The notes under the pieces were generated by a model, which saw nothing but the letters and a program-made list of their open reading frames with translations, was not told where the DNA came from and ran no database searches. The position numbers and the translations under genes are program-made. This document shows positions 6,189 to 27,837 of a stretch of DNA of 29,092 bases, piece by piece (positions within the stretch are counted from its first letter, which is position 1; each line of letters starts with the position of its first letter). Source of the DNA: a virus (lineage: Duplodnaviria; Caudoviricetes); IMG/VR virus record IMGVR_UViG_3300006851_000019, positions 1-29,092 of that record; one strand, given 5' to 3'.

Positions 6189-6209
6189 GAGGTGATTCAT
6201 ATCTCGTTG

Positions 6210-6236
6210 GTAGCAGACGTTAGCTACTATTTTTTT
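6210..6236 (+). terminator. Intrinsic terminator upstream of the scaffold gene
   Basis: GTAGC-AGACGTTA-GCTAC followed by TATTTTTTT. Confidence 0.6.
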
Positions 6237-6338
6237 ATGCATAATTTCGTCTTTTTAGCACTTGCAGACGTTAAAGATTCAAGGCGGTTCGTGGTCGTAA
6301 CCCACGTAAAAAAACGTAACCAATGGAGGTAATCACTG

Positions 6339-6908
6339 ATGAACAGAGAGTTTTTAGAAGGATTGGGACTTGAAAAGGAAACTATTGACAAGGTAATGGC
6401 AGAGCACGGGAAGGCACTAAACGCTCATAAGGAAAAAGCTGATAAAGCCGAGGGCTTGGAATCCCAGATTGAGGACTATAAACAGCAACTAGCAGACCGA
6501 GATGAACAGCTCAATGAATTGTCTGAAAAGGCAAGAGGAAACGAGGAATTAACAGCTCAGATTGACGAATTGAAACAGCAGAACGAAACCACCAAAACAG
6601 AATATGAAGAAAAACTGCAACAACAAGCCTTCGAACATAAGCTTGAATCAACTCTCGCTGGTGCAAAGGCGAAGAACGTTAAAGCAGTAAAAGCGTTGCT
6701 GGACTTGGAATCTATCAAGTTGGACGGTGACAAGCTTCTTGGTTTAGATGATCAACTCACCAATTTGAAAGAAAACGAGTCTTATTTGTTTGAGCAAGAA
6801 CAGGAACCGAATCCCTCCCCGCAGATTGTTACGCCAGGCAATCCAGACGGAGGGAAGGGCGGCGGGGATAATGACCCGTTTGCGGCAAAATTGGCTAAAT
6901 ACAATTAA
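6339..6908 (+). CDS. Scaffolding protein (GP20-like)
   Basis: MNREFL..LGL....ID.VMAEHGK start, coiled coil, AKAKN.KAVKALLD...YLF. Confidence 0.92.
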   Translation: MNREFLEGLGLEKETIDKVMAEHGKALNAHKEKADKAEGLESQIEDYKQQLADRDEQLNELSEKARGNEELTAQIDELKQQNETTKTEYEEKLQQQAFEHKLESTLAGAKAKNVKAVKALLDLESIKLDGDKLLGLDDQLTNLKENESYLFEQEQEPNPSPQIVTPGNPDGGKGGGDNDPFAAKLAKYN

Positions 6909-6927
6909 TAGAAAGAGGTAATTTAAA

Positions 6928-7815
6928 ATGCCAACATCAAATAATAATCAAGCAGCACGTAGTTATCAAAAACAATTTAGACAATTATTACAAGCAGTCT
7001 TCCGTACGCAAGCATATTTCCGCGATTTTTTCGGAGGTAATATTGAAGCTCTAGACGGCGTTCAACATAATGAAACAGCTTTTTATGTTAAAACGTCCGA
7101 TATTCCAGTCGTTGTAGGTACTGAATATAACAAAGATACTAACGTCGGGTTTGGTACAGGGACGTCTAATAGCACAAGATTCGGTCCACGAACAGAGATT
7201 ATCTATACAGACACACCAGTTCCTTACACCTGGGAGTGGGTTTATCATGAGGGAATTGACCGACACACTGTAAATAACGATATGCAATCAGCGATTGCTG
7301 ATCGTTTAGATCTGCAGGCTCAGGCTAAAATAAAGCAATTTAATACGCAACATAGTCAGTTTATTTCTAGTGTTGCTGGACATGAAGCGACTGTAGAAGG
7401 ATATAACGAAGATGCTATTCTTGCATTATTTAATGAGCTCTCTAACTACTATGTAAACATCGAGGCGGTTGGAACTAAAGCAGCTAAAGTTACACCTGAA
7501 CTCTATAACGCTATCGTCGATCATCCACTTACGACGAGCGCTAAAAGTTCATCGGCAAACATTGATCAAAATAACATCTTGAACTTCAAAGGTTTCCAAA
7601 TTGAAGAAATCCCTGAATCAATGCTTCAAGAGGGCGATGTTGCTTACACGTATATTACAGGTGTTGGCAAAGCATTTACCGGCATTAATACAGCACGTAC
7701 TATTGAATCAGAGGACTTTGACGGCGTGGCGCTTCAAGGCGCTGGTAAAGCTGGGGAGTTTATACTTGATGACAACAAAAAGGCTGTAGCGAAGGTGACT
7801 TTATCGGGGGAGTAA
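6928..7815 (+). CDS. Major capsid protein
   Basis: Follows the scaffold, 295 aa; ARTIESEDFDGVALQGAGKAG motif; ends LSGE*. Confidence 0.9.
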   Translation: MPTSNNNQAARSYQKQFRQLLQAVFRTQAYFRDFFGGNIEALDGVQHNETAFYVKTSDIPVVVGTEYNKDTNVGFGTGTSNSTRFGPRTEIIYTDTPVPYTWEWVYHEGIDRHTVNNDMQSAIADRLDLQAQAKIKQFNTQHSQFISSVAGHEATVEGYNEDAILALFNELSNYYVNIEAVGTKAAKVTPELYNAIVDHPLTTSAKSSSANIDQNNILNFKGFQIEEIPESMLQEGDVAYTYITGVGKAFTGINTARTIESEDFDGVALQGAGKAGEFILDDNKKAVAKVTLSGE

Positions 7816-7877
7816 TAAACCCCGAAATTGACAATGTCACGCCAACGACTGACGGGGCAGTCATTAATTTAAGATAG
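7804..7877 (+). other. Putative programmed -1 frameshift site (TCG GGG GAG TAA) giving a capsid with C-terminal extension GVINPEIDNVTPTTDGAVINLR
   Basis: -1 frame open 7806-7877; homologous element at the tail-tube gene end; stop overlaps the SD of the next gene. Confidence 0.75.
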
Positions 7878-7887
7878 GAGGGCTTCA

Positions 7888-8643
7888 ATGTTTAGAATCT
7901 ACAAAGGTGATGAAGTTGTTGTAGAGGGTGAAAGCCCTCTTAATATCACCGGATTAGAACCGAATACAGCAGTATCGGCAGGTGAATATGAGGCGGTAAG
8001 GGTTGAGGATGACAGGGAGTCTGAAAGAGTGGATATCCCTGCATTCACCACGTTGCCGATTGAGGTAACAGGCGTGTCTGTAAACCCAACAAGCTTATCA
8101 CTAGACACGGGAGACACAGGAAACCTAACAGCAACCATTTCTCCATCCAATGCTACAAATCAAGGTGTATCGTGGCAGTCTAGCAATACAGATGTAGCCA
8201 CAGTTAACGATGGCGTTGTGACTGCTGTTAGTGCAGGGAGCGCTACAATCACCGTTACAACCAACGACGGAGGACACACGGCAACTTGTGAGGTAACTGT
8301 AACGGATCCAGTGATTAATGTGACGGGAGTCGCTCTATCGCCGCAAACGTCCAGTGCAGAGGCAGGGACAGCAGGGAATAGACAACTAACCGCGACTGTT
8401 TCGCCAGCTGATGCCACAAATAGCGGTGTGTCTTATTCGATCGCACCAAATACAAGCGGTTTATCTGTCAGCGCCAGCGGATTAATTGAATGGACCGCAG
8501 ATGTGCCTGCAGGTACTTATACAACAACTGTGACCACAGACGACGGTGGTCACACGGATACGCATGTATTAACATTAACCGAACCAGAGCCAGAGGAACC
8601 AGAAGACCCTGAAGATCCAACTGATCCAGAAGAGGGTGATTAA
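7888..8643 (+). CDS. Virion decoration protein: N-terminally incomplete FN3-like domain, two Ig-like (Big_2-type) domains and an acidic Pro-Glu tail
   Basis: ITGLEPNT....Y FN3 signature; VTGVSV.P..L.L..G....LTATI.P.NATN..V.W.SSN..VATV..G.VTAV.AG.ATITVTT.DG is a Big_2 pattern. Confidence 0.88.
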   Translation: MFRIYKGDEVVVEGESPLNITGLEPNTAVSAGEYEAVRVEDDRESERVDIPAFTTLPIEVTGVSVNPTSLSLDTGDTGNLTATISPSNATNQGVSWQSSNTDVATVNDGVVTAVSAGSATITVTTNDGGHTATCEVTVTDPVINVTGVALSPQTSSAEAGTAGNRQLTATVSPADATNSGVSYSIAPNTSGLSVSASGLIEWTADVPAGTYTTTVTTDDGGHTDTHVLTLTEPEPEEPEDPEDPTDPEEGD

Positions 8644-9038
8644 TGGTGGTTTATCTAACCTATGAGGAATTCAAAGAGTTGTCTCATTCCGATATTGATG
8701 AATCGACGTTCAATAGCTTAATTAAAAAAGCTAGTGCGGTTTTAAATAACATCACTAGCTATTTTTATGTCAAAAATGACATTGCCAAAGATAATGAATG
8801 GCGTGTGAATCAATTTAAACAAGCCTTATGTGCTCAAATTGAATACTTTCATGAATTAGGTGCTTCTACCTTTGAGGGCATTAATAAAGCTCCTCAGTCA
8901 TTCAGCGCAGGTCGTACAACGGTTACTAATGCTAGTCGCTCAAGCGGCGAAGGAGAAAATAAGTCTCTCGTGGCAGAGGATGTTTATATCTACTTGGAAG
9001 GGACTGGCTTACTCTATTCAGCCGTGAGCGTATGGTAA
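8643..9038 (+). CDS. Head-tail adaptor protein
   Basis: YLTYEEF start, FKQALCAQIEY, L.GTGLLY end; synteny. Confidence 0.8.
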   Translation: MVVYLTYEEFKELSHSDIDESTFNSLIKKASAVLNNITSYFYVKNDIAKDNEWRVNQFKQALCAQIEYFHELGASTFEGINKAPQSFSAGRTTVTNASRSSGEGENKSLVAEDVYIYLEGTGLLYSAVSVW

Positions 9039-9373
9039 TGACTAAAGTGCCTGCTGAATTCTGTATTGACAGCTTCGAGTACAAGGAGTATCTAGGTGAG
9101 AATAATTGGAGTGAGCCGGAATACGCCGACCCGGTAACTATTCGGAATTGCCGAATAGATCGCGGTTCAGAATACACGTCAACCACAGCAGGAAAACAGT
9201 TGCTTTGGAACGCGGTTATCTTTTGCTATGAAGGTATTACCACGCCTATCCCTAATTTTACAACGCAATCTATCCTCACTTTTGACGGTGTGGACCATGT
9301 AGTTACAAAAGTTATCCCGATCTATGAAGCGTATGAGAAAAATCTCTACTCCTATGAATTGGAGGTGGTGTGA
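9032..9373 (+). CDS. Head-tail joining / head-closure ('minor capsid') protein
   Basis: Synteny, size, C-terminal SYELEVV. Confidence 0.75.
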   Translation: MVMTKVPAEFCIDSFEYKEYLGENNWSEPEYADPVTIRNCRIDRGSEYTSTTAGKQLLWNAVIFCYEGITTPIPNFTTQSILTFDGVDHVVTKVIPIYEAYEKNLYSYELEVV

Positions 9374-9702
9374 TGGTGCAAGTGTCGATTGATCTCAATA
9401 GAGCAAAAGTAAAGATGTCACAACAGAGCGTACAGCGCGGCAGGTATGCCCTTGCTAACCAAGCTATGGCGGACATGAACCAGTTTGTACCGATGGACGA
9501 GGGAACTCTTAGGCAGACGGCTTCGGTTGATGTAACAGGTGAAGCAATCAGCTACAACACCCCTTATGCCCGTAGATTGTTCTACATGCCGATGTACAAT
9601 TACACCACACCGGGAACAGGTCCACGTTGGGATATGAAAGCTAAACGGATATTTATGAGTGATTGGATAAGGGCGTTCACAAAGGGGGCTGATTGGAATT
9701 GA
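9373..9702 (+). CDS. 'Minor capsid' / tail completion protein (HK97 gp10-like position)
   Basis: FVP.DEG.LR, YNTPYARRLFY, TTPGTGPRWD motifs. Confidence 0.8.
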   Translation: MVQVSIDLNRAKVKMSQQSVQRGRYALANQAMADMNQFVPMDEGTLRQTASVDVTGEAISYNTPYARRLFYMPMYNYTTPGTGPRWDMKAKRIFMSDWIRAFTKGADWN

Positions 9703-10093
9703 TTTCATTGAAAGGCTAACTGAAAGGGTAAACGATATACCAAATCTTCCTATCGATTGTAAGATGGGCTATCTTGGTATAGATGAGTCGTTCGTTGTTT
9801 ATCCGTTACCAGGCAGTCGAACGGTTTCAGAATTCATGGATGGAACGAAAGAGCAACACTTAAACTTCGAATTCGCAATGAAGTCACAGCTTCAAAGTAA
9901 AATTCATACTACTTTGTGGCTCGTTCAGAACGAATTAGACGAGTTGGAAGAGTTAGAAAGTCATGACGGTAGCTTTGAATTCGAGGAATTAATCATAACG
10001 AACAAGCCTTTTATCAATCAAATTGATGATCAAGGTTGGTTCGTTTTTTTGTTGGATATTCAAGCCAATATAACAGTTTTCAAGGAGGAATAG
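9698..10093 (+). CDS. Tail terminator / 'minor capsid' protein, probably starting at a non-canonical ATT
   Basis: Frame open from 9671 with no ATG/GTG/TTG until 9764; SD AAAGGGGG 9681-9688 then ATT GAT TTC ATT GAA AGG; YPLPGSR....MDG motif. Confidence 0.75.
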   Translation: MDFIERLTERVNDIPNLPIDCKMGYLGIDESFVVYPLPGSRTVSEFMDGTKEQHLNFEFAMKSQLQSKIHTTLWLVQNELDELEELESHDGSFEFEELIITNKPFINQIDDQGWFVFLLDIQANITVFKEE

Positions 10094-10097
10094 AAAA

Positions 10098-10550
10098 ATG
10101 GCTAGATTAAAAAACGCTGAGCGTAAACACTATGTGCAAGCATACGAACCAGGACAGGATGAGCCGGGGGAAGAGTGGTTTGAATTAGCTCACCTTATTT
10201 CTACCATCGGCGACGATACTCAGGAAGAGACAGAGGACGAAGCTTTCTATGATGGGGATGGTACGCCAGAAACGACTGTTACATCTGTTGCTCAAGCCTA
10301 CACACCAGAGGGTTACTATGACCCAGAGGATGAAGCGCAGGAGTTGATTGCAAGTTTGAAATTTAAAACAGGCGATGGACGTAAGATTTGGCACCGCGTT
10401 GTTCGTTCTGATGGCAAGAAGGAATGGGTAGGTGTGGCAACAGTGACAGCGATTGTTGCAGGGGCAGGAGACGCAAGCGCTTATGAGACGTTTAGCTGTA
10501 ACATTCGTTTTGATCAAATCCCAGAGGAGACTGATTTATCGGGGGAGTAA
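10098..10550 (+). CDS. Major tail (tube) protein
   Basis: YDGDGTPETTV motif, G.YD.ED.AQ, synteny; ends LSGE*. Confidence 0.9.
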   Translation: MARLKNAERKHYVQAYEPGQDEPGEEWFELAHLISTIGDDTQEETEDEAFYDGDGTPETTVTSVAQAYTPEGYYDPEDEAQELIASLKFKTGDGRKIWHRVVRSDGKKEWVGVATVTAIVAGAGDASAYETFSCNIRFDQIPEETDLSGE

Positions 10551-10612
10551 TAGCCCCGGTGGTTGACAATGTATCTCCCACAACAAATGGGGCGATTGTG
10601 ACACTAGAATAA
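10539..10612 (+). other. Putative programmed -1 frameshift site (TCG GGG GAG TAA) giving a tail tube with extension GVIAPVVDNVSPTTNGAIVTLE
   Basis: -1 frame open 10541-10612; 13/22 identical to the capsid extension; terminator begins at the -1 stop. Confidence 0.75.
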
Positions 10613-10636
10613 GAGGGGTTTATACCCCTCTATTTT
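10612..10636 (+). terminator. Intrinsic terminator after the extended tail-tube frame
   Basis: AGAGGGGT-TTAT-ACCCCTCT followed by ATTTT. Confidence 0.7.
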
Positions 10637-10655
10637 CATACTAGGAGGTTGAAAA

Positions 10656-11108
10656 ATGGTAAAAGTTGATATACAGCGAACAGGCTTTCCCGTGACGATT
10701 GGAACACTAGAATTGTGGTTCGATAGCTCAATCGAGAACCTAAGACGCTTCTTCAATGTTGATGAAATAGCGCAGGAGAGATTAAAAGAAGCACAGGAAA
10801 AAGCGAAACATATTCATTTTCCATTGGAAGTAAATGTTGAAACTATCGACAACATCGACGTAAAAACAGTAGACGCTGCCTTTGATGTGAATAAGGAATT
10901 TATAGCTGCACAGTACGATATCATTTTTGGTGATGGGACTTTCAAAAAGATTTACCAGCAATACCCGGACATTCTAGCACTAGAACAGGCGTTAGACCCA
11001 CTTGGCGCTGCCATTGCTGAGCGTATCGGAGAAATGGAAGAAGAGCGAACAGAAAAGATTGAAGCGAAGAAGAATGAATACTTGAAGAAAAAAGCACAGA
11101 AAAAGTAG
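10656..11108 (+). CDS. Tail assembly chaperone
   Basis: Follows the tail tube; IFGDGTFKKIY motif. Confidence 0.75.
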   Translation: MVKVDIQRTGFPVTIGTLELWFDSSIENLRRFFNVDEIAQERLKEAQEKAKHIHFPLEVNVETIDNIDVKTVDAAFDVNKEFIAAQYDIIFGDGTFKKIYQQYPDILALEQALDPLGAAIAERIGEMEEERTEKIEAKKNEYLKKKAQKK

Positions 11109-11116
11109 GTGATTAA

Positions 11117-11686
11117 ATGCGTCTCAACGACCCTTTAGTCACTTCTTTTTCATATGACGGCAAAGAATATGAAATCGATTTAGCTTTCGATAATGTACTC
11201 GATGTGTTCGATGTTCTTGACGATGAGACGCTAAGAGGATACGAAAAGGCTGAAATATGTCTTTCTCTGTTAGTAGGAGAAACATTTACGGGACTTGAAG
11301 CCGTCGAAATGTGGAATTATGTTTACGAAAAGTACATTAAAATTGAAAGTAAGAAGCCGATTGAATATGACTTAAAAGGAAATCCTATGCCCGTTCAAGA
11401 GGACGAGGAAACGGAGCGCTTCATTGATTTTGAGCAAGACGCTGAACATATCTACGCTTCATTCCGCCAGGCCTACGGAATGAATCTGTATGAACAGCAA
11501 GGAAAGCTTTCATGGAAAGAATTCCAAGCTTTGTTGAGTGGTTTGCCAAGCGATACGATTATGCAACGAGTTATTCAAATTCGATTGTGGAAGCCGTCAA
11601 AAGGTGATACAGCCGAATACAGAGAAAATATGCGGAAGCTACAGAAAATTTATGCGTTAAACGACATGGAAGATACCCCCGAGTAA
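11117..11686 (+). CDS. Gp15-family tail assembly protein
   Basis: Y.IDLAFDNVL, DFEQDA..IYASF.QAYG.NL, L.W.EF.ALL.GLP.DT....IQIR. Confidence 0.85.
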   Translation: MRLNDPLVTSFSYDGKEYEIDLAFDNVLDVFDVLDDETLRGYEKAEICLSLLVGETFTGLEAVEMWNYVYEKYIKIESKKPIEYDLKGNPMPVQEDEETERFIDFEQDAEHIYASFRQAYGMNLYEQQGKLSWKEFQALLSGLPSDTIMQRVIQIRLWKPSKGDTAEYRENMRKLQKIYALNDMEDTPE

Positions 11687-11728
11687 TGGTAAAATTTACT
11701 TACTACTTATGGTTATGGGGGGATTGTG

Positions 11729-12211
11729 ATGAAAAAGGGACTGATTTTACTTTTTAGTGTGCTGTTCTTGGTTGGTTGTGGTGACACTGATATCGAAAGT
11801 GAAACAGGAGTAGCGGAGACTGAAGAGGAAGAAAAGAGAGAGGAGATGTTAGAAACGGAAGTAATGTTGTATCTTTCAAAAATGACAAATAACTATTCCT
11901 CCGCATTTATAGCAACTACCTCAATAGATGAAAAGAACGAATATCTTACTAAAGCAATAACTGATATAAATTTAGCGGTTCTCGAAATAGAAGATGAGTT
12001 CGAAGAAGGCGCACCACCAACAAAAGAATTATTCGAATTAGCGGAGTTACTAAAAATTGCCATAGAGTCAGAAATAGCGGGTGACAATGAAAATGCGCAC
12101 AAGTACTCACATGAGGCAGGTGCAATAATAGGAGATTTATCCAGAGAATATTTAGATGGAGAGTTGCCGACAGCTCTTAAAATTATGACAGGTTTAGATG
12201 ACGCAAATTAA
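11729..12211 (+). CDS. Lipoprotein moron of unknown function
   Basis: MKK + hydrophobic stretch + lipobox LVGC; extended -10 TGGTAAAAT at 11687-11695; own terminator. Confidence 0.85.
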   Translation: MKKGLILLFSVLFLVGCGDTDIESETGVAETEEEEKREEMLETEVMLYLSKMTNNYSSAFIATTSIDEKNEYLTKAITDINLAVLEIEDEFEEGAPPTKELFELAELLKIAIESEIAGDNENAHKYSHEAGAIIGDLSREYLDGELPTALKIMTGLDDAN

Positions 12212-24359: not shown

Positions 24360-26024
24360 GTGAAATATCTTAGGTACATAGTGTCGCTTGCTATCATATT
24401 TTCTCTATTTGTACCAAGCGCACTGGCAGAGAATGCTTTTTCAGACGTAAATGATGATTTTTGGGCAAAGGATGAAATTGAGTATTTAGCAGACGAGGGG
24501 ATTATAGGCGGTTATGATGACGGGACGTTTAATCCGAATGCGCCTGTAACTCGAAGTCAAGCAGCAATCATGCTTGTGCGTGCATTGGACTTAGAAGCCG
24601 ATAATCGCCCTGCAGCAGACTTCGCAGATATTAGCGACGACTATCATGCGTATGATGTAGTTGCTACTGTCCAGGACGAGGGAATTATAACAGGACGAGA
24701 CGGGCGGTTTATGCCGAATGACACGCTAACACGCGGTCAAATGGCTGCTGTCTTAAACCGTTCATTTGATTTTGAAGAAGGAAATGTTAGCTTTTCTGAT
24801 GTAAGTCAAGATTCTACATTTTATCAAGACATTGCGAATATTGCAGAAGCTAATATAACTACAGGATATAGTGAAGATAATACATTTAGACCAAACAATG
24901 ACACAACACGCGCTCAGTTTTCTGTATTTTTGGCCCGTGTTCTCGACGACTCATTTCGCGTATCTGATGATGAAGAAGACAACGGTGATGATGAAACTGC
25001 ATATCCTACAGTAAGCATGGAAGCTCACTTTTTAGATGTAGGACAAGGTGACGCTACACTTATCGTCAACAATCAAGGCGGTGTAATGCTTGTAGACGCG
25101 GGTACTCGCTCAGCAGGAGAAAAGGTTGTGGCGTATTTAAAAGAAGCCGGAATTGACACAATTGATAAGCTAGTTGCGACACACGCACACGCGGATCATA
25201 TCGGTGGAATGGTAGAAGTTATGCAGAATTTTGAAATTGGAGAAGTCATTGATAGCGGTATTCCTCATACATCTCAGACATACATAGAATATTTGGAATA
25301 CATTGATGACAACGACATTCCATTTACTGTTGCTGAGCCCGGAGATAAGGTTGACTTAGGTAGCGGAGTAGACATTGCTGTAGTTAATAGCGGGCAAGAA
25401 GGCGACAGTTTGAATAATGCTTCCGTATCTCTTCATATAGAGTATCAGGACACTAGCCTGCTCTTAACTGGTGACGCGGAAGAAGCAGCAGAGCGACGTA
25501 TTGTCAACAACTTCAATGTAGAAGCGGACGTGTTAAAAGTCGGTCATCACAGCTCAAATACAAGCTCTAATGACTTTTTCCTCGACGCTGTACAGCCGGA
25601 CCATGCAGTATTTTCATATGGAGAAGGTAACCAATACGGCCATCCGCATGATGAAGTGATTGATCGTTTACAGAATAGAGGAGCGGACATCTATTCCACT
25701 GCAGAACAAGGAAATATCGTGGCTAATTTCCATGCGGGTAACGTATCGTTTTATACATCCCCATGGGACATTGATGTAACGCCTGAACCAGAACCAGAGC
25801 CTACTCCTGAACCACAACCGGAGCCAAGCCCGGGATTAATCAATATTAATACAGCGAATTATGAGGAGCTGCAGGAGATAACGGGCGTTGGTCCTGTTAT
25901 TGCAGAACGTATCATCGAATACCGTAACACACATGGTGGCTTTGATAGCATTGAGGAGATCATGCAAGTGAGCGGTATCGCAGAAGGACGCTTTTCTGAC
26001 ATGAGGGATGAAATCACTGTATAG
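24360..26024 (+). CDS. Secreted S-layer-anchored protein: signal peptide, 3 SLH domains, ComEC-like metallo-beta-lactamase domain, Pro-Glu linker, ComEA-like helix-hairpin-helix
   Basis: FSDV...WA, F.PN...TR.Q SLH motifs; HFLDVGQGDA, THAHADHIGG, LLTGDAE, VGHH, N.YGHP; ININTA..EEL..I.GVG...A..I..YR...GGF..IEE...V.GI. Confidence 0.92.
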   Translation: MKYLRYIVSLAIIFSLFVPSALAENAFSDVNDDFWAKDEIEYLADEGIIGGYDDGTFNPNAPVTRSQAAIMLVRALDLEADNRPAADFADISDDYHAYDVVATVQDEGIITGRDGRFMPNDTLTRGQMAAVLNRSFDFEEGNVSFSDVSQDSTFYQDIANIAEANITTGYSEDNTFRPNNDTTRAQFSVFLARVLDDSFRVSDDEEDNGDDETAYPTVSMEAHFLDVGQGDATLIVNNQGGVMLVDAGTRSAGEKVVAYLKEAGIDTIDKLVATHAHADHIGGMVEVMQNFEIGEVIDSGIPHTSQTYIEYLEYIDDNDIPFTVAEPGDKVDLGSGVDIAVVNSGQEGDSLNNASVSLHIEYQDTSLLLTGDAEEAAERRIVNNFNVEADVLKVGHHSSNTSSNDFFLDAVQPDHAVFSYGEGNQYGHPHDEVIDRLQNRGADIYSTAEQGNIVANFHAGNVSFYTSPWDIDVTPEPEPEPTPEPQPEPSPGLININTANYEELQEITGVGPVIAERIIEYRNTHGGFDSIEEIMQVSGIAEGRFSDMRDEITV

Positions 26025-26628: not shown

Positions 26629-27819
26629 TTACGAATTCCTGATTTCCTTCTTAGTGAAGATGTCGTTTAACTTGTTTGCAGCTTCTTGATCAGCTGCTTC
26701 TAATACGCGACCATACGTGTCCATTGTGATTCGTATATCCGCATGACCAAGCCTTTCGGAAATAACTTTCGCATGGACACCTTGGTTAATAAGGAAGGTG
26801 GCTGATGTATGTCTTAAATCATGAAGACGGATGTATCTGATTTTTTTTCGTTCGGTAAATCTTCTCCACCAGGTAGTTGGGGTAGTAGGGTAAAAGTGCG
26901 TTCCGTCATCATTGCAAAATAACCAATTGTGTTTCTCTTCTTTCCAATAGTCCCCAGCGTCCGATCTTAATTTCATGTTTTTCATGTGCAGTTGTTTCAA
27001 AAGGAGCATGATTGATTCCGGTACTGTGACAATCCTGGTTGATGTATATGATTTCGGGTCCTTCAAAACAGCACGTCCTTTTTCCCCGCGCACAATAGCT
27101 TGATCAATCTTGATTTGATTCTTTCCCCAATTTATTTTGTCTGTTTCTAAAGCAAGGTTTTCGCCACGTCTAAAACCACACGATAAAGCAAGAGAGATAA
27201 ACACTTGCCAGTGTAGGGGCTCTGATTCCATCGCTTTGAAAATACCCTCAACTTCCTGTTCATCATACACGTTGTCTTTTGCTTTTCGTTTTTCAGCCCT
27301 TGGTCTTTGTACTTTTGCTATCACATTTTCTGTGACAAATTCCCATTCTCGCGCTCTTTCAAAAACATTCCGCAATACTCTGTAAGAATATTGAACAGTT
27401 GAACCGGACAATTTCTTTTCTTTTCGTAAGTCGGATAAAAAATCAAGGATGTGCTTCGGTCTGATCTGTTCTAATCTCATGTCACCGAACACAGGTAAGA
27501 TATGGACATCTAAATGACTGTTATACGATTCGAGTGTTCCGGGTGATAGGTTCTCTTCCGCATAGTTTTTCTCCCAATGTCGCACAAACTCTCTTAAAGA
27601 CATCCTTTCAGGTTTGATGTACTCTCCTGACTCGACTTCCATCTGAAACTTATATAACTCTTTTTTCAGATGATCATCAAGTTTCTTTTTGGTTCGCAAA
27701 AGTTTTTCATCATCAATCTTTATTGTCTTTGTCCGTTTGTTTCTTTTTCCAGCAGCGTCATAACCGAGTTCAACAACTAATAAAAAAGAGTTCTTACCCC
27801 GCTTTTGATAGCTAGCCAT
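26629..27819 (-). CDS. int: Tyrosine integrase
   Basis: G.RRGE, HDLRHT, RLGH and TMDTY catalytic motifs; SD GAGGTGA before ATG 27819; adjacent to att. Confidence 0.96.
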   Translation of the reverse strand: MASYQKRGKNSFLLVVELGYDAAGKRNKRTKTIKIDDEKLLRTKKKLDDHLKKELYKFQMEVESGEYIKPERMSLREFVRHWEKNYAEENLSPGTLESYNSHLDVHILPVFGDMRLEQIRPKHILDFLSDLRKEKKLSGSTVQYSYRVLRNVFERAREWEFVTENVIAKVQRPRAEKRKAKDNVYDEQEVEGIFKAMESEPLHWQVFISLALSCGFRRGENLALETDKINWGKNQIKIDQAIVRGEKGRAVLKDPKSYTSTRIVTVPESIMLLLKQLHMKNMKLRSDAGDYWKEEKHNWLFCNDDGTHFYPTTPTTWWRRFTERKKIRYIRLHDLRHTSATFLINQGVHAKVISERLGHADIRITMDTYGRVLEAADQEAANKLNDIFTKKEIRNS

Positions 27820-27837
27820 AATTATCACCTCAAACTC

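Follow-up and report, generated by a model that had tools for sequence, protein, structure and literature searches.

This work deals with a putative split FN3-like docking device in a soil phage, the virus record IMGVR_UViG_3300006851_000019 (Duplodnaviria; Caudoviricetes), of which the stretch of 29,092 bp beginning at position 1 (hereafter the window) was analyzed. The device would consist of short C-terminal peptides of the capsid and tail tube proteins (tags) and of an incomplete domain (catcher) at the beginning of the protein encoded by the open reading frame (ORF) 7888. The 29 kb record is about 73% complete and contains a head and tail module of A118-like siphophage type, known here from its genes, which follow in the order terminase, portal, minor capsid, scaffold, major capsid, ORF 7888–8643, connector genes, tail tube, chaperones and tape measure. 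The major capsid protein (295 aa; 6928–7815, plus strand), which is the first tag carrier, matches the major head protein family phrog_840 (E 1.3e-123), and the major tail (tube) protein (150 aa; 10098–10550, plus strand), which is the second one, matches the major tail protein family phrog_820 (E 2.9e-56).

Putative Frameshift Sites and Tags

Both carrier genes terminate in the identical 15-mer TTATCGGGGGAGTAA (7801–7815 and 10536–10550, plus strand), read in the codons TTA TCG GGG GAG TAA. These are the only two matches in the window at up to two mismatches, and none of 100 shuffled sequences reached two (shuffle mean 0.03). In the −1 frame the end of the capsid gene (7806–7877) is translated as GGVINPEIDNVTPTTDGAVINLR and that of the tail tube gene (10541–10612) as GGVIAPVVDNVSPTTNGAIVTLE, each followed by a stop codon; 14 of the 23 residues of the two stretches (61%) are identical. 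The extension past the normal last codon amounts to 21 residues at either gene, namely the capsid tag VINPEIDNVTPTTDGAVINLR (7812–7877, plus strand), predicted from its likeness to part of the natural fusion protein P0106 (see below) to form strands A and B of an FN3-like domain, and the tail tag VIAPVVDNVSPTTNGAIVTLE (10547–10612, plus strand). The tail tag gave an E-value of 1.9e-10 among 2968 stop-terminated peptides with a tag profile that itself includes it, and an independent score of 24 with seeds from five public phages. The sites and the tags can be read directly from the nucleotide sequence, and −1 frameshifting at both gene ends is likely.

It had been noticed in the original prediction that the tail gene has a tag and no Ig gene after it. 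Indeed, the tail tag is not succeeded by a catcher gene; directly 3′ of its stop codon a pattern scan revealed a terminator-like hairpin (10612–10631, plus strand), and the tail chaperone comes next. This hairpin is a weak candidate, because such sites are no more numerous in the region than in shuffled sequences.

Among 86 distinct tagged gene ends from related loci, the tag is reached by a −1 shift in 61, by a +1 shift in 18 and in frame in 7. The commonest context is GGGGGAGTAA (24 of 86), and G GGA AAG, which ranks second among the −1 sites, is the heptamer of the lambda tail chaperone.

ORF 7888 and Its Domains

As originally predicted, ORF 7888 has its own ribosome-binding site and start codon. 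The Shine-Dalgarno sequence AGGAGG (7876–7881, plus strand) overlaps the TAG stop codon of the capsid tag and is located 6 nt before the ATG at 7888, which is in the 0 frame of the capsid gene and not in that of the tag. Purine-rich sites, read by eye, also precede the start in 57 distinct catcher ORFs. Promoter-like sites in the region 6200–11200 numbered 7 versus 9.8 in shuffled sequences, so they give no support to an internal promoter for ORF 7888.

The first 57 residues of the protein (7888–8058, plus strand) constitute the catcher, an FN3-like half domain with the predicted strands C-C′-E-F-G. They are followed, in agreement with the original prediction, by two Ig-like cargo domains, a Big_2 domain (residues 59–136; 8062–8295, plus strand; PF02368, E 3.6e-22) and a He_PIG-like domain (residues 140–233; 8305–8586, plus strand; PF05345, E 1.4e-7, 32.2 bits versus a cut-off of 24). 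The C-terminal stretch up to 8643 is acidic, rich in Pro, Glu and Asp, and carries no tag. Residues 1–57 gave no Pfam match at E ≤ 0.1. ORF 7888 is the sole catcher of the record, and the named genomes with its closest relatives belong to Oceanobacillus, Siminovitchia and Virgibacillus. The protein is a member of phrog_341, annotated as ‘major tail protein’ (E 2.8e-67 over residues 2–139; E 9.3e-18 for residues 2–57 alone), together with Kayvirus TmpH and TmpI and ORF16 of the Enterococcus phage phiEf11. The N-terminal domain of this family is present in 486 phage records, and its label looks wrong.

Catchers do not keep a fixed position relative to the preceding tag. In 40 adjacent pairs (from 44 of 57 distinct catchers; one locus was represented twice) the gap between tag and catcher varied from 8 to 58 nt, the three possible phases occurred 14, 13 and 13 times, and the tag stop was TAA in 22 pairs and TAG in 18. 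No reading-frame relation is thus kept, which makes covalent fusion unlikely, and the earlier statement that no such fusion is evident agrees with these counts. It could be supposed that the capsid tag and ORF 7888 are joined in a covalent capsid-FN3-Ig-Ig chain by further recoding, such as readthrough, another shift or a hop, since only 10 nt separate the tag stop from the ATG at 7888 and since frameshift-appended whole Ig-like domains are common in such phages (PMC5009743). However, the variable gaps, phases and stops, as well as the catcher's own ribosome-binding site, argue against the chain, and the tail tag, in the absence of a catcher gene 3′ of it, could not be accounted for in this way. 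We therefore regard a covalent chain as extremely improbable.

Fold of the Catcher and Natural Fusions

The catcher was modelled with AlphaFold2 from an alignment of 44 catchers, and the model, with a predicted local distance difference test (pLDDT) value of 96.6, was compared with 48,161 solved chains. The entire model could be aligned with FN3 domains over their last two-thirds, the first two strands of these being consistently outside the aligned ranges, and the list of structure matches was nearly all FN3. Thus, the model aligns only to the C–G part of the fold, as expected from the original prediction that ORF 7888 begins with strands C–G and lacks A and B. The best match was BppA of phage Tuc2009, residues 230–284 (Z 7.2, root-mean-square deviation (rmsd) 2.0, 54 aligned residues), and residues 34–91 of FN3tt gave Z 5.1 and rmsd 1.9; Z values under 8 are middling by the own note of the structure-comparison tool. 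The same BppA domain ranked first in Foldseek (E 0.097). The second-best match (Z 6.2) was the N-terminal domain of a Bxb1 tail-tip protein (PDB 9d93, chain Sa, residues 7–71), which may be another split FN3.

Comparisons of sequences with solved structures gave little: a single-sequence search with the catcher matched none of them, the catcher profile gave only weak fibronectin and 5E7T matches in the PDB (5E7T-type E 0.81), and the tag profile had no match of note. FN3 domains are characterized by a Trp closing strand B, a Tyr on strand C, a Leu in the E-F loop and a Tyr on strand F. Of these, the two Tyr and the Leu are found in the catchers, Y5 being invariant and Y34 present in at least 90% of the 44 sequences; a GLEPNT motif also occurs, with about five more residues before the strand F Tyr than in the canonical pattern. 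The strand B Trp column is absent from an alignment of 59 tags, so that the tag fits the A-B pattern originally proposed for it only in part. The fused domain of P0106 scores 14.1 bits with Pfam fn3 (PF00041), below the cut-off of 25 bits. Given the lack of the Trp and this score, the domain formed by tag and catcher is FN3-like by fold and not a member of Pfam fn3.

Proteins in which the two parts are naturally fused were found in a catcher profile search of 1.84 billion representatives, which returned 388 proteins at E ≤ 0.001; 224 of them were analyzed further. In these, 194 catcher-like domains of at least 25 bits are N-terminal and 24 are internal, and a tag-profile match lies directly upstream of 8 of the 24 internal ones. 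Several of the others have a tag-like upstream segment by eye, and P0200 has none. P0106 shares 10 of 18 positions with the window capsid tag in the segment that precedes its catcher-like part, and 23 of 57 positions with the window catcher in that part itself. Residues 240–329 of this protein, a fused domain of 90 residues, were modelled with a pLDDT of 95.9 as six strands of three or more residues plus short bridges, in which the tag part forms the strands 7–14 and 17–23. Six FN3-type Foldseek matches at E ≤ 0.001 covered 93–104 columns (best E 6.3e-4). Tag and catcher together are thus predicted to make a whole FN3-like sandwich, as originally supposed, the full-length match being that of the homologue P0106 and not of the window's own pair.

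The complex of separate tag and catcher, predicted from the alignments of both, scored 0.53 versus 0.02 for the best of three controls; separate runs shared at least 95% of their contacts, and the pLDDT of the partner was 71. Of 157 solved complexes 116 reach the mark used, as do 2 of 215 mismatches, counts that are only roughly valid for alignments made here; at 0.60 or under it is reached by both of these mismatches and by only 18 of the 157. Because 0.53 lies in the range of both mismatches, the complex is weak support for docking. In addition, the tag chain used in the run included seven upstream residues absent from the natural product, and the two parts of a split domain often pass this test owing to their likeness to solved structures. 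Both the strand assignment and the complex come from models only.

A number of catchers end in a tag of their own. There are 11 such proteins among the 224, including P0003, which is 90% identical to the window catcher; P0133, P0136 and P0139 are also of this kind, as are those in L115 (9971–10249), L119 (9295–9573), L136 (2645–2923), L101 (9992–10531) and L002 (2492–3004). Such proteins could chain head-to-tail or complete themselves. Two consecutive catchers are encoded in L136 and in phage 812. In the Lactobacillus phage PLE3 (L003, 5355–6233) the tail of the catcher is Thr-rich, and the next gene, of 292 aa, looks glycosyltransferase-like by eye; Thr-rich catchers are also present in L071 and L117.

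Co-occurrence of Tags and Catchers

Tags were scored with nine seeds from five public phages picked for holding a catcher, all of which possess tags. In phiEf11 the capsid tag is reached by a −1 shift, the tube tag is in frame, and the catcher follows the tube gene. Both tags are reached by −1 shifts in PLE3 and by +1 shifts in PMBT2, where the tube tag (L004, 7238–7303) contains an internal TAG at the place where the close relatives L107–L109 read Gln. SpT152 has a +1 capsid tag and a tube tag in frame, and in Kayvirus 812 gp155 carries a tag, gp156 is a catcher-Big_2-tag protein and gp157 is a catcher.

Of 3181 candidate gene-end peptides 180 scored 12 or more and one fell between 8 and 12, which leaves a clean gap. 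Tags were revealed in 96 of 97 catcher loci, and the remaining one (L132) has a weak tag. Among the 83 loci covered by 4.5 kb on both sides, 76 have two tags, one has three, five have one and one has none, counts that are partly circular since the profile was built from these loci. A PHROGs test covered 56 of the 89 distinct tagged ORFs, with near-duplicates, those of the window itself, ORFs overlapping out of frame and proteins with both catcher and tag left out, and all 56 were major head (phrog 840, 544, 247, 10, 29) or major tail proteins (820, 88, 238).

Loci picked by other genes gave a similar picture. In 35 loci picked by capsid likeness, some of them short contigs, only L039 had a catcher of this type and only L039 had tags of this type. 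In 28 loci picked by tail-tube likeness, seven had a catcher and both tags and 21 had neither, three of the latter being too short upstream for the catcher to be judged. Thus, the co-occurrence survey that had been suggested in the original prediction found tags and truncated FN3 genes together in both samplings. A Fisher value of 2e-6 for the resulting 7/0/0/18 table was not relied on, because the loci are related, and some contigs recur between the locus sets. On a tree of the tubes of 22 of these 28 loci and the window (six short, duplicate or broken rows were left out) the trait changes six times, as often as with shuffled labels, and at least three changes are forced. The nearest tubes to that of the window (87–89% identical) are from loci without catcher and without tags. 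The position of the catcher gene varies among phages, being either after the capsid gene or after the tube gene, and the distant tag is kept either way; in the window 2.7 kb separate the tail tag from the catcher, whose presence it tracks nevertheless.

In seven relatives without a catcher (L016, L023, L040, L156, L166, L168 and L173) a shift-like end of the tube gene is kept, and the shifted frame encodes a short acidic, low-complexity peptide rich in Pro and Glu. Such extensions are consistent with another explanation, in which the tags are made but have a different role, for example in attachment to the shell surface or to the host, and the catcher, folded on its own or as a swapped dimer, comes to the virion in a different way. 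The confident model of the catcher alone and the weak score of the complex are also in line with it. On the other hand, tag and catcher are adjacent within one domain in the natural fusions, a like half domain is completed in trans in the structure 5E7T, and no tag of this type was found without a catcher among the 35 capsid-picked and 28 tube-picked loci. A separate role of the tags is therefore quite unlikely.

A second class of tags bears Trp. Loci L030 and L031 have +1 CCC-TAA tags ending in L-x-W on the capsid and tube genes and a separate, canonical FN3 remainder of 64 residues (coordinates of this class: L030, 6891–7197 and 9129–9202; L144, 5926–6201; L143, 4400–4674). The Bacillus phage BpsS-140 is split like L030 and L031, and PfEFR-4 has a whole FN3 as a +1 capsid extension. 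When viral contigs were searched with the Trp-type catcher, none was recovered beyond the two from which the search had started. The coexistence of intact and split states suggests how the split arose, with the direction unproven. It could accordingly be asked whether the tags are decaying, functionless relics of a once intact frameshifted FN3 domain, as intact frameshifted forms do exist (PfEFR-4; SPP1 gp17.1*, PMC8718954) and breakage would be an easy origin. However, the length and pattern of the tags are kept on eight unrelated carrier families by −1, +1 and in-frame routes, and the distant tail tag still tracks the catcher, so we consider the relic explanation very unlikely.

Comparison with Known Systems

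In the counterpart closest in structure, Lactococcus phage Tuc2009, a 25-residue extension of BppU is a hairpin that completes a sheet of BppA domain 2 (residues 230–286; PDB 5E7T), with a titin-like domain as the result (Legrand et al., 2016; PMC4742702). Consequently, the docking mechanism, which the original prediction did not know to be described, has a solved precedent. In both systems a virion structural protein bears a short C-terminal hairpin (in the window a predicted one), and a separately encoded protein with cargo provides a half domain of about 57 residues and five strands (catcher versus BppA: Z 7.2, rmsd 2.0). The differences are as follows: the Tuc2009 tag is in frame, belongs to one baseplate protein and ends in Trp, whereas the window tags likely result from frameshifting, belong to the capsid and tube proteins and lack Trp; the Tuc2009 half domain is C-terminal in an accessory protein with carbohydrate-binding adhesion cargo, whereas the window catcher is N-terminal and has Big_2 and He_PIG-like cargo. 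The tag profile had no significant match to BppU, and the sequence likeness of BppA is faint.

Whole Ig or FN3 domains are added by frameshifting to capsid or tail proteins of SPP1 (gp17.1*), Listeria phages PSA, A118 and A500 and Lactobacillus phage A2 (PMC8718954; PMC5009743). The window shares with the SPP1/PSA/A118 type a shift-prone site at the ends of the genes for the major capsid and tail proteins, and −1, +1 and in-frame routes are interchangeable; as in that type, an outward-facing Ig-like fold would be added to a minority of the subunits. In that type, however, the extension is a whole covalent domain, whereas in the window it has 21 residues, and the remainder is a separate gene shared by two carriers.

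Virions of two phages with relatives of the catcher have been studied. The capsid protein of phiEf11 virions gives two bands that differ by about 3 kDa, and its extension by 21 residues in the −1 frame was put forward speculatively (PMC5221750); in its available text this paper gives no docking mechanism and does not link the extension to ORF16. In Kayvirus, TmpH (AFN38181.1), which is the product of the catcher-Big_2-tag gene of phage 812, was located on virions by immunogold (PMC8236893), in a paper whose available text likewise gives no docking mechanism. In the parts of the phage 812 genome that were scanned, tags occur only on gp155 and TmpH. The gp155 protein (L002, 1837–2469) is represented by PDB 9ROX/9ROZ as a ‘putative Ig-like protein’, residues 2–175, without the tag; the paper for these entries was not found.

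Completion of an incomplete Ig-like fold by a short peptide of another protein is also a feature of chaperone-usher pili, in which one N-terminal strand is donated (donor-strand complementation), and of the engineered SpyTag/SpyCatcher pair, which forms a covalent isopeptide bond. The window tag differs from both in that a C-terminal hairpin of two strands is predicted to be donated without a covalent bond.

A system with tags on head and tail was not found in the open full-text literature, a scope outside which most subscription papers lie, and the available parts of PMC12886913, PMC13433997, PMC12917162, PMC13370021, PMC7260188 and PMC6669499 contain nothing on it. Thus, hairpin completion is already known from 5E7T, and what was not found in print is a frameshift-made tag shared by head and tail with swappable cargo.

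Other Features of the Window

One contig, possibly from the source run, spans 6946–10015 with one differing letter and no gaps, and a second one of this possible source run spans 10021–10700 with no differing letters; neither is independent of the record. In one low-depth contig the segment 10538–10610, containing the tail tag, is swapped for 15 letters, and another contig omits 7868–8620; these single contigs were not used as evidence.

A lipoprotein-like ORF of 161 aa (11726–12211, plus strand) with a signal and an LVGC lipobox by eye, a weak phrog_11062 match and no Pfam match separates the tape measure gene from the tail chaperones and is likely an inserted accessory gene. A gene of 554 aa (24360–26024, plus strand) encodes SLH, metallo-beta-lactamase-fold and helix-hairpin-helix parts; from its position between the lysis genes and the integrase (26629–27828, minus strand) it may be surface-nuclease-like phage cargo.

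Discussion

We consider it probable that the locus encodes a real split FN3-like device for non-covalent docking that is shared by head and tail. We infer that a minority of ribosomes would slip by −1 on the identical G-run of the capsid and tail tube genes, which would append the 21-residue tag, the predicted A-B hairpin of an FN3-like domain. The ORF 7888 protein, translated separately and beginning with the predicted remaining five strands, would bind this hairpin non-covalently and hang its two Ig domains on head and tail, where the Ig cargo would help the virion to adhere weakly to cell surfaces. The phage would gain in that two shells are served by a single, swappable decoration gene, with neither shell protein lengthened. 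The originally proposed setting of decoration density by the frameshift frequency cannot be general, because several relatives carry the tail tag in frame.

A number of observations weigh against this reading. As far as the signals are concerned, no stable hairpin was found 3′ of either site in the window (z −0.17 and −1.13), and G GGG GAG is an imperfect X XXY YYZ heptamer. The catcher alone is modelled confidently (pLDDT 96.6), a value that gives no indication whether this fragment requires a partner to be stable, and the score of the complex may be partly due to likeness with solved FN3 and 5E7T structures. The surveyed loci include many near-identical Enterococcus prophages, so that the counts overstate independence, and with the tag profile 5 of the 83 well-covered loci show one tag and one shows none. 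Use of the catcher at two sites is itself a prediction from sequence comparison. TmpH was seen on the tail only (PMC8236893), mass spectrometry of phiEf11 found no extension peptide, and the phiEf11 catcher ORF16 is not among the identified proteins, the resolved bands being of 27–85 kDa and thus larger than ORF16 (PMC5221750). No tag was found on the capsid or sheath genes of phage 812 in about 78 kb scanned of 142 kb.

Part of these data could mean that docking takes place at one site only, or that the window G-run slips too rarely, one tag being idle. The tail-only location of TmpH, the missing phiEf11 tag peptide, the lack of a stimulatory hairpin at the window sites, the internal TAG in the PMBT2 tail tag and the single tags in 5 of 83 loci are all consistent with it. 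Against this, 76 of the 83 well-covered loci keep exactly two tags and one keeps three (the profile coming from these loci), the catcher and both tags appear or vanish together in all seven of the unbiased tube-picked loci that have them, and the distant tag is kept whether the catcher follows the capsid or the tube gene. Docking at a single site, or slipping too rare to matter, is therefore unlikely.

If the shared docking device is real, the question arises of how far it extends. We regard as evenly balanced the proposition that phages of Gram-positive bacteria share a general plug-and-socket decoration, in which a hairpin tag of 21 residues, gained by frameshifting or encoded in frame, is borne by capsid, tube and accessory proteins of unrelated families and binds a half-FN3 catcher whose cargo can be exchanged (Ig, G5, HeH-like, Thr-rich or none), and in which catcher-tag proteins form non-covalent chains or fibers on the virion, as may be the case of Kayvirus gp155-TmpH-TmpI.

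If true, this would explain the virion attachment of a common family mislabelled as ‘major tail protein’, found in the 486 phage records mentioned above, including therapeutic Kayviruses and Enterococcus phages. It would also mean that there are hidden capsid and tube isoforms overlooked by genome annotation and standard proteomics, and it would join frameshifted shell proteins and the hairpin-completed sandwich of Tuc2009 in one modular device. Moreover, as a natural peptide-protein pair of small size, the tag and the catcher may be useful for display on phage particles.

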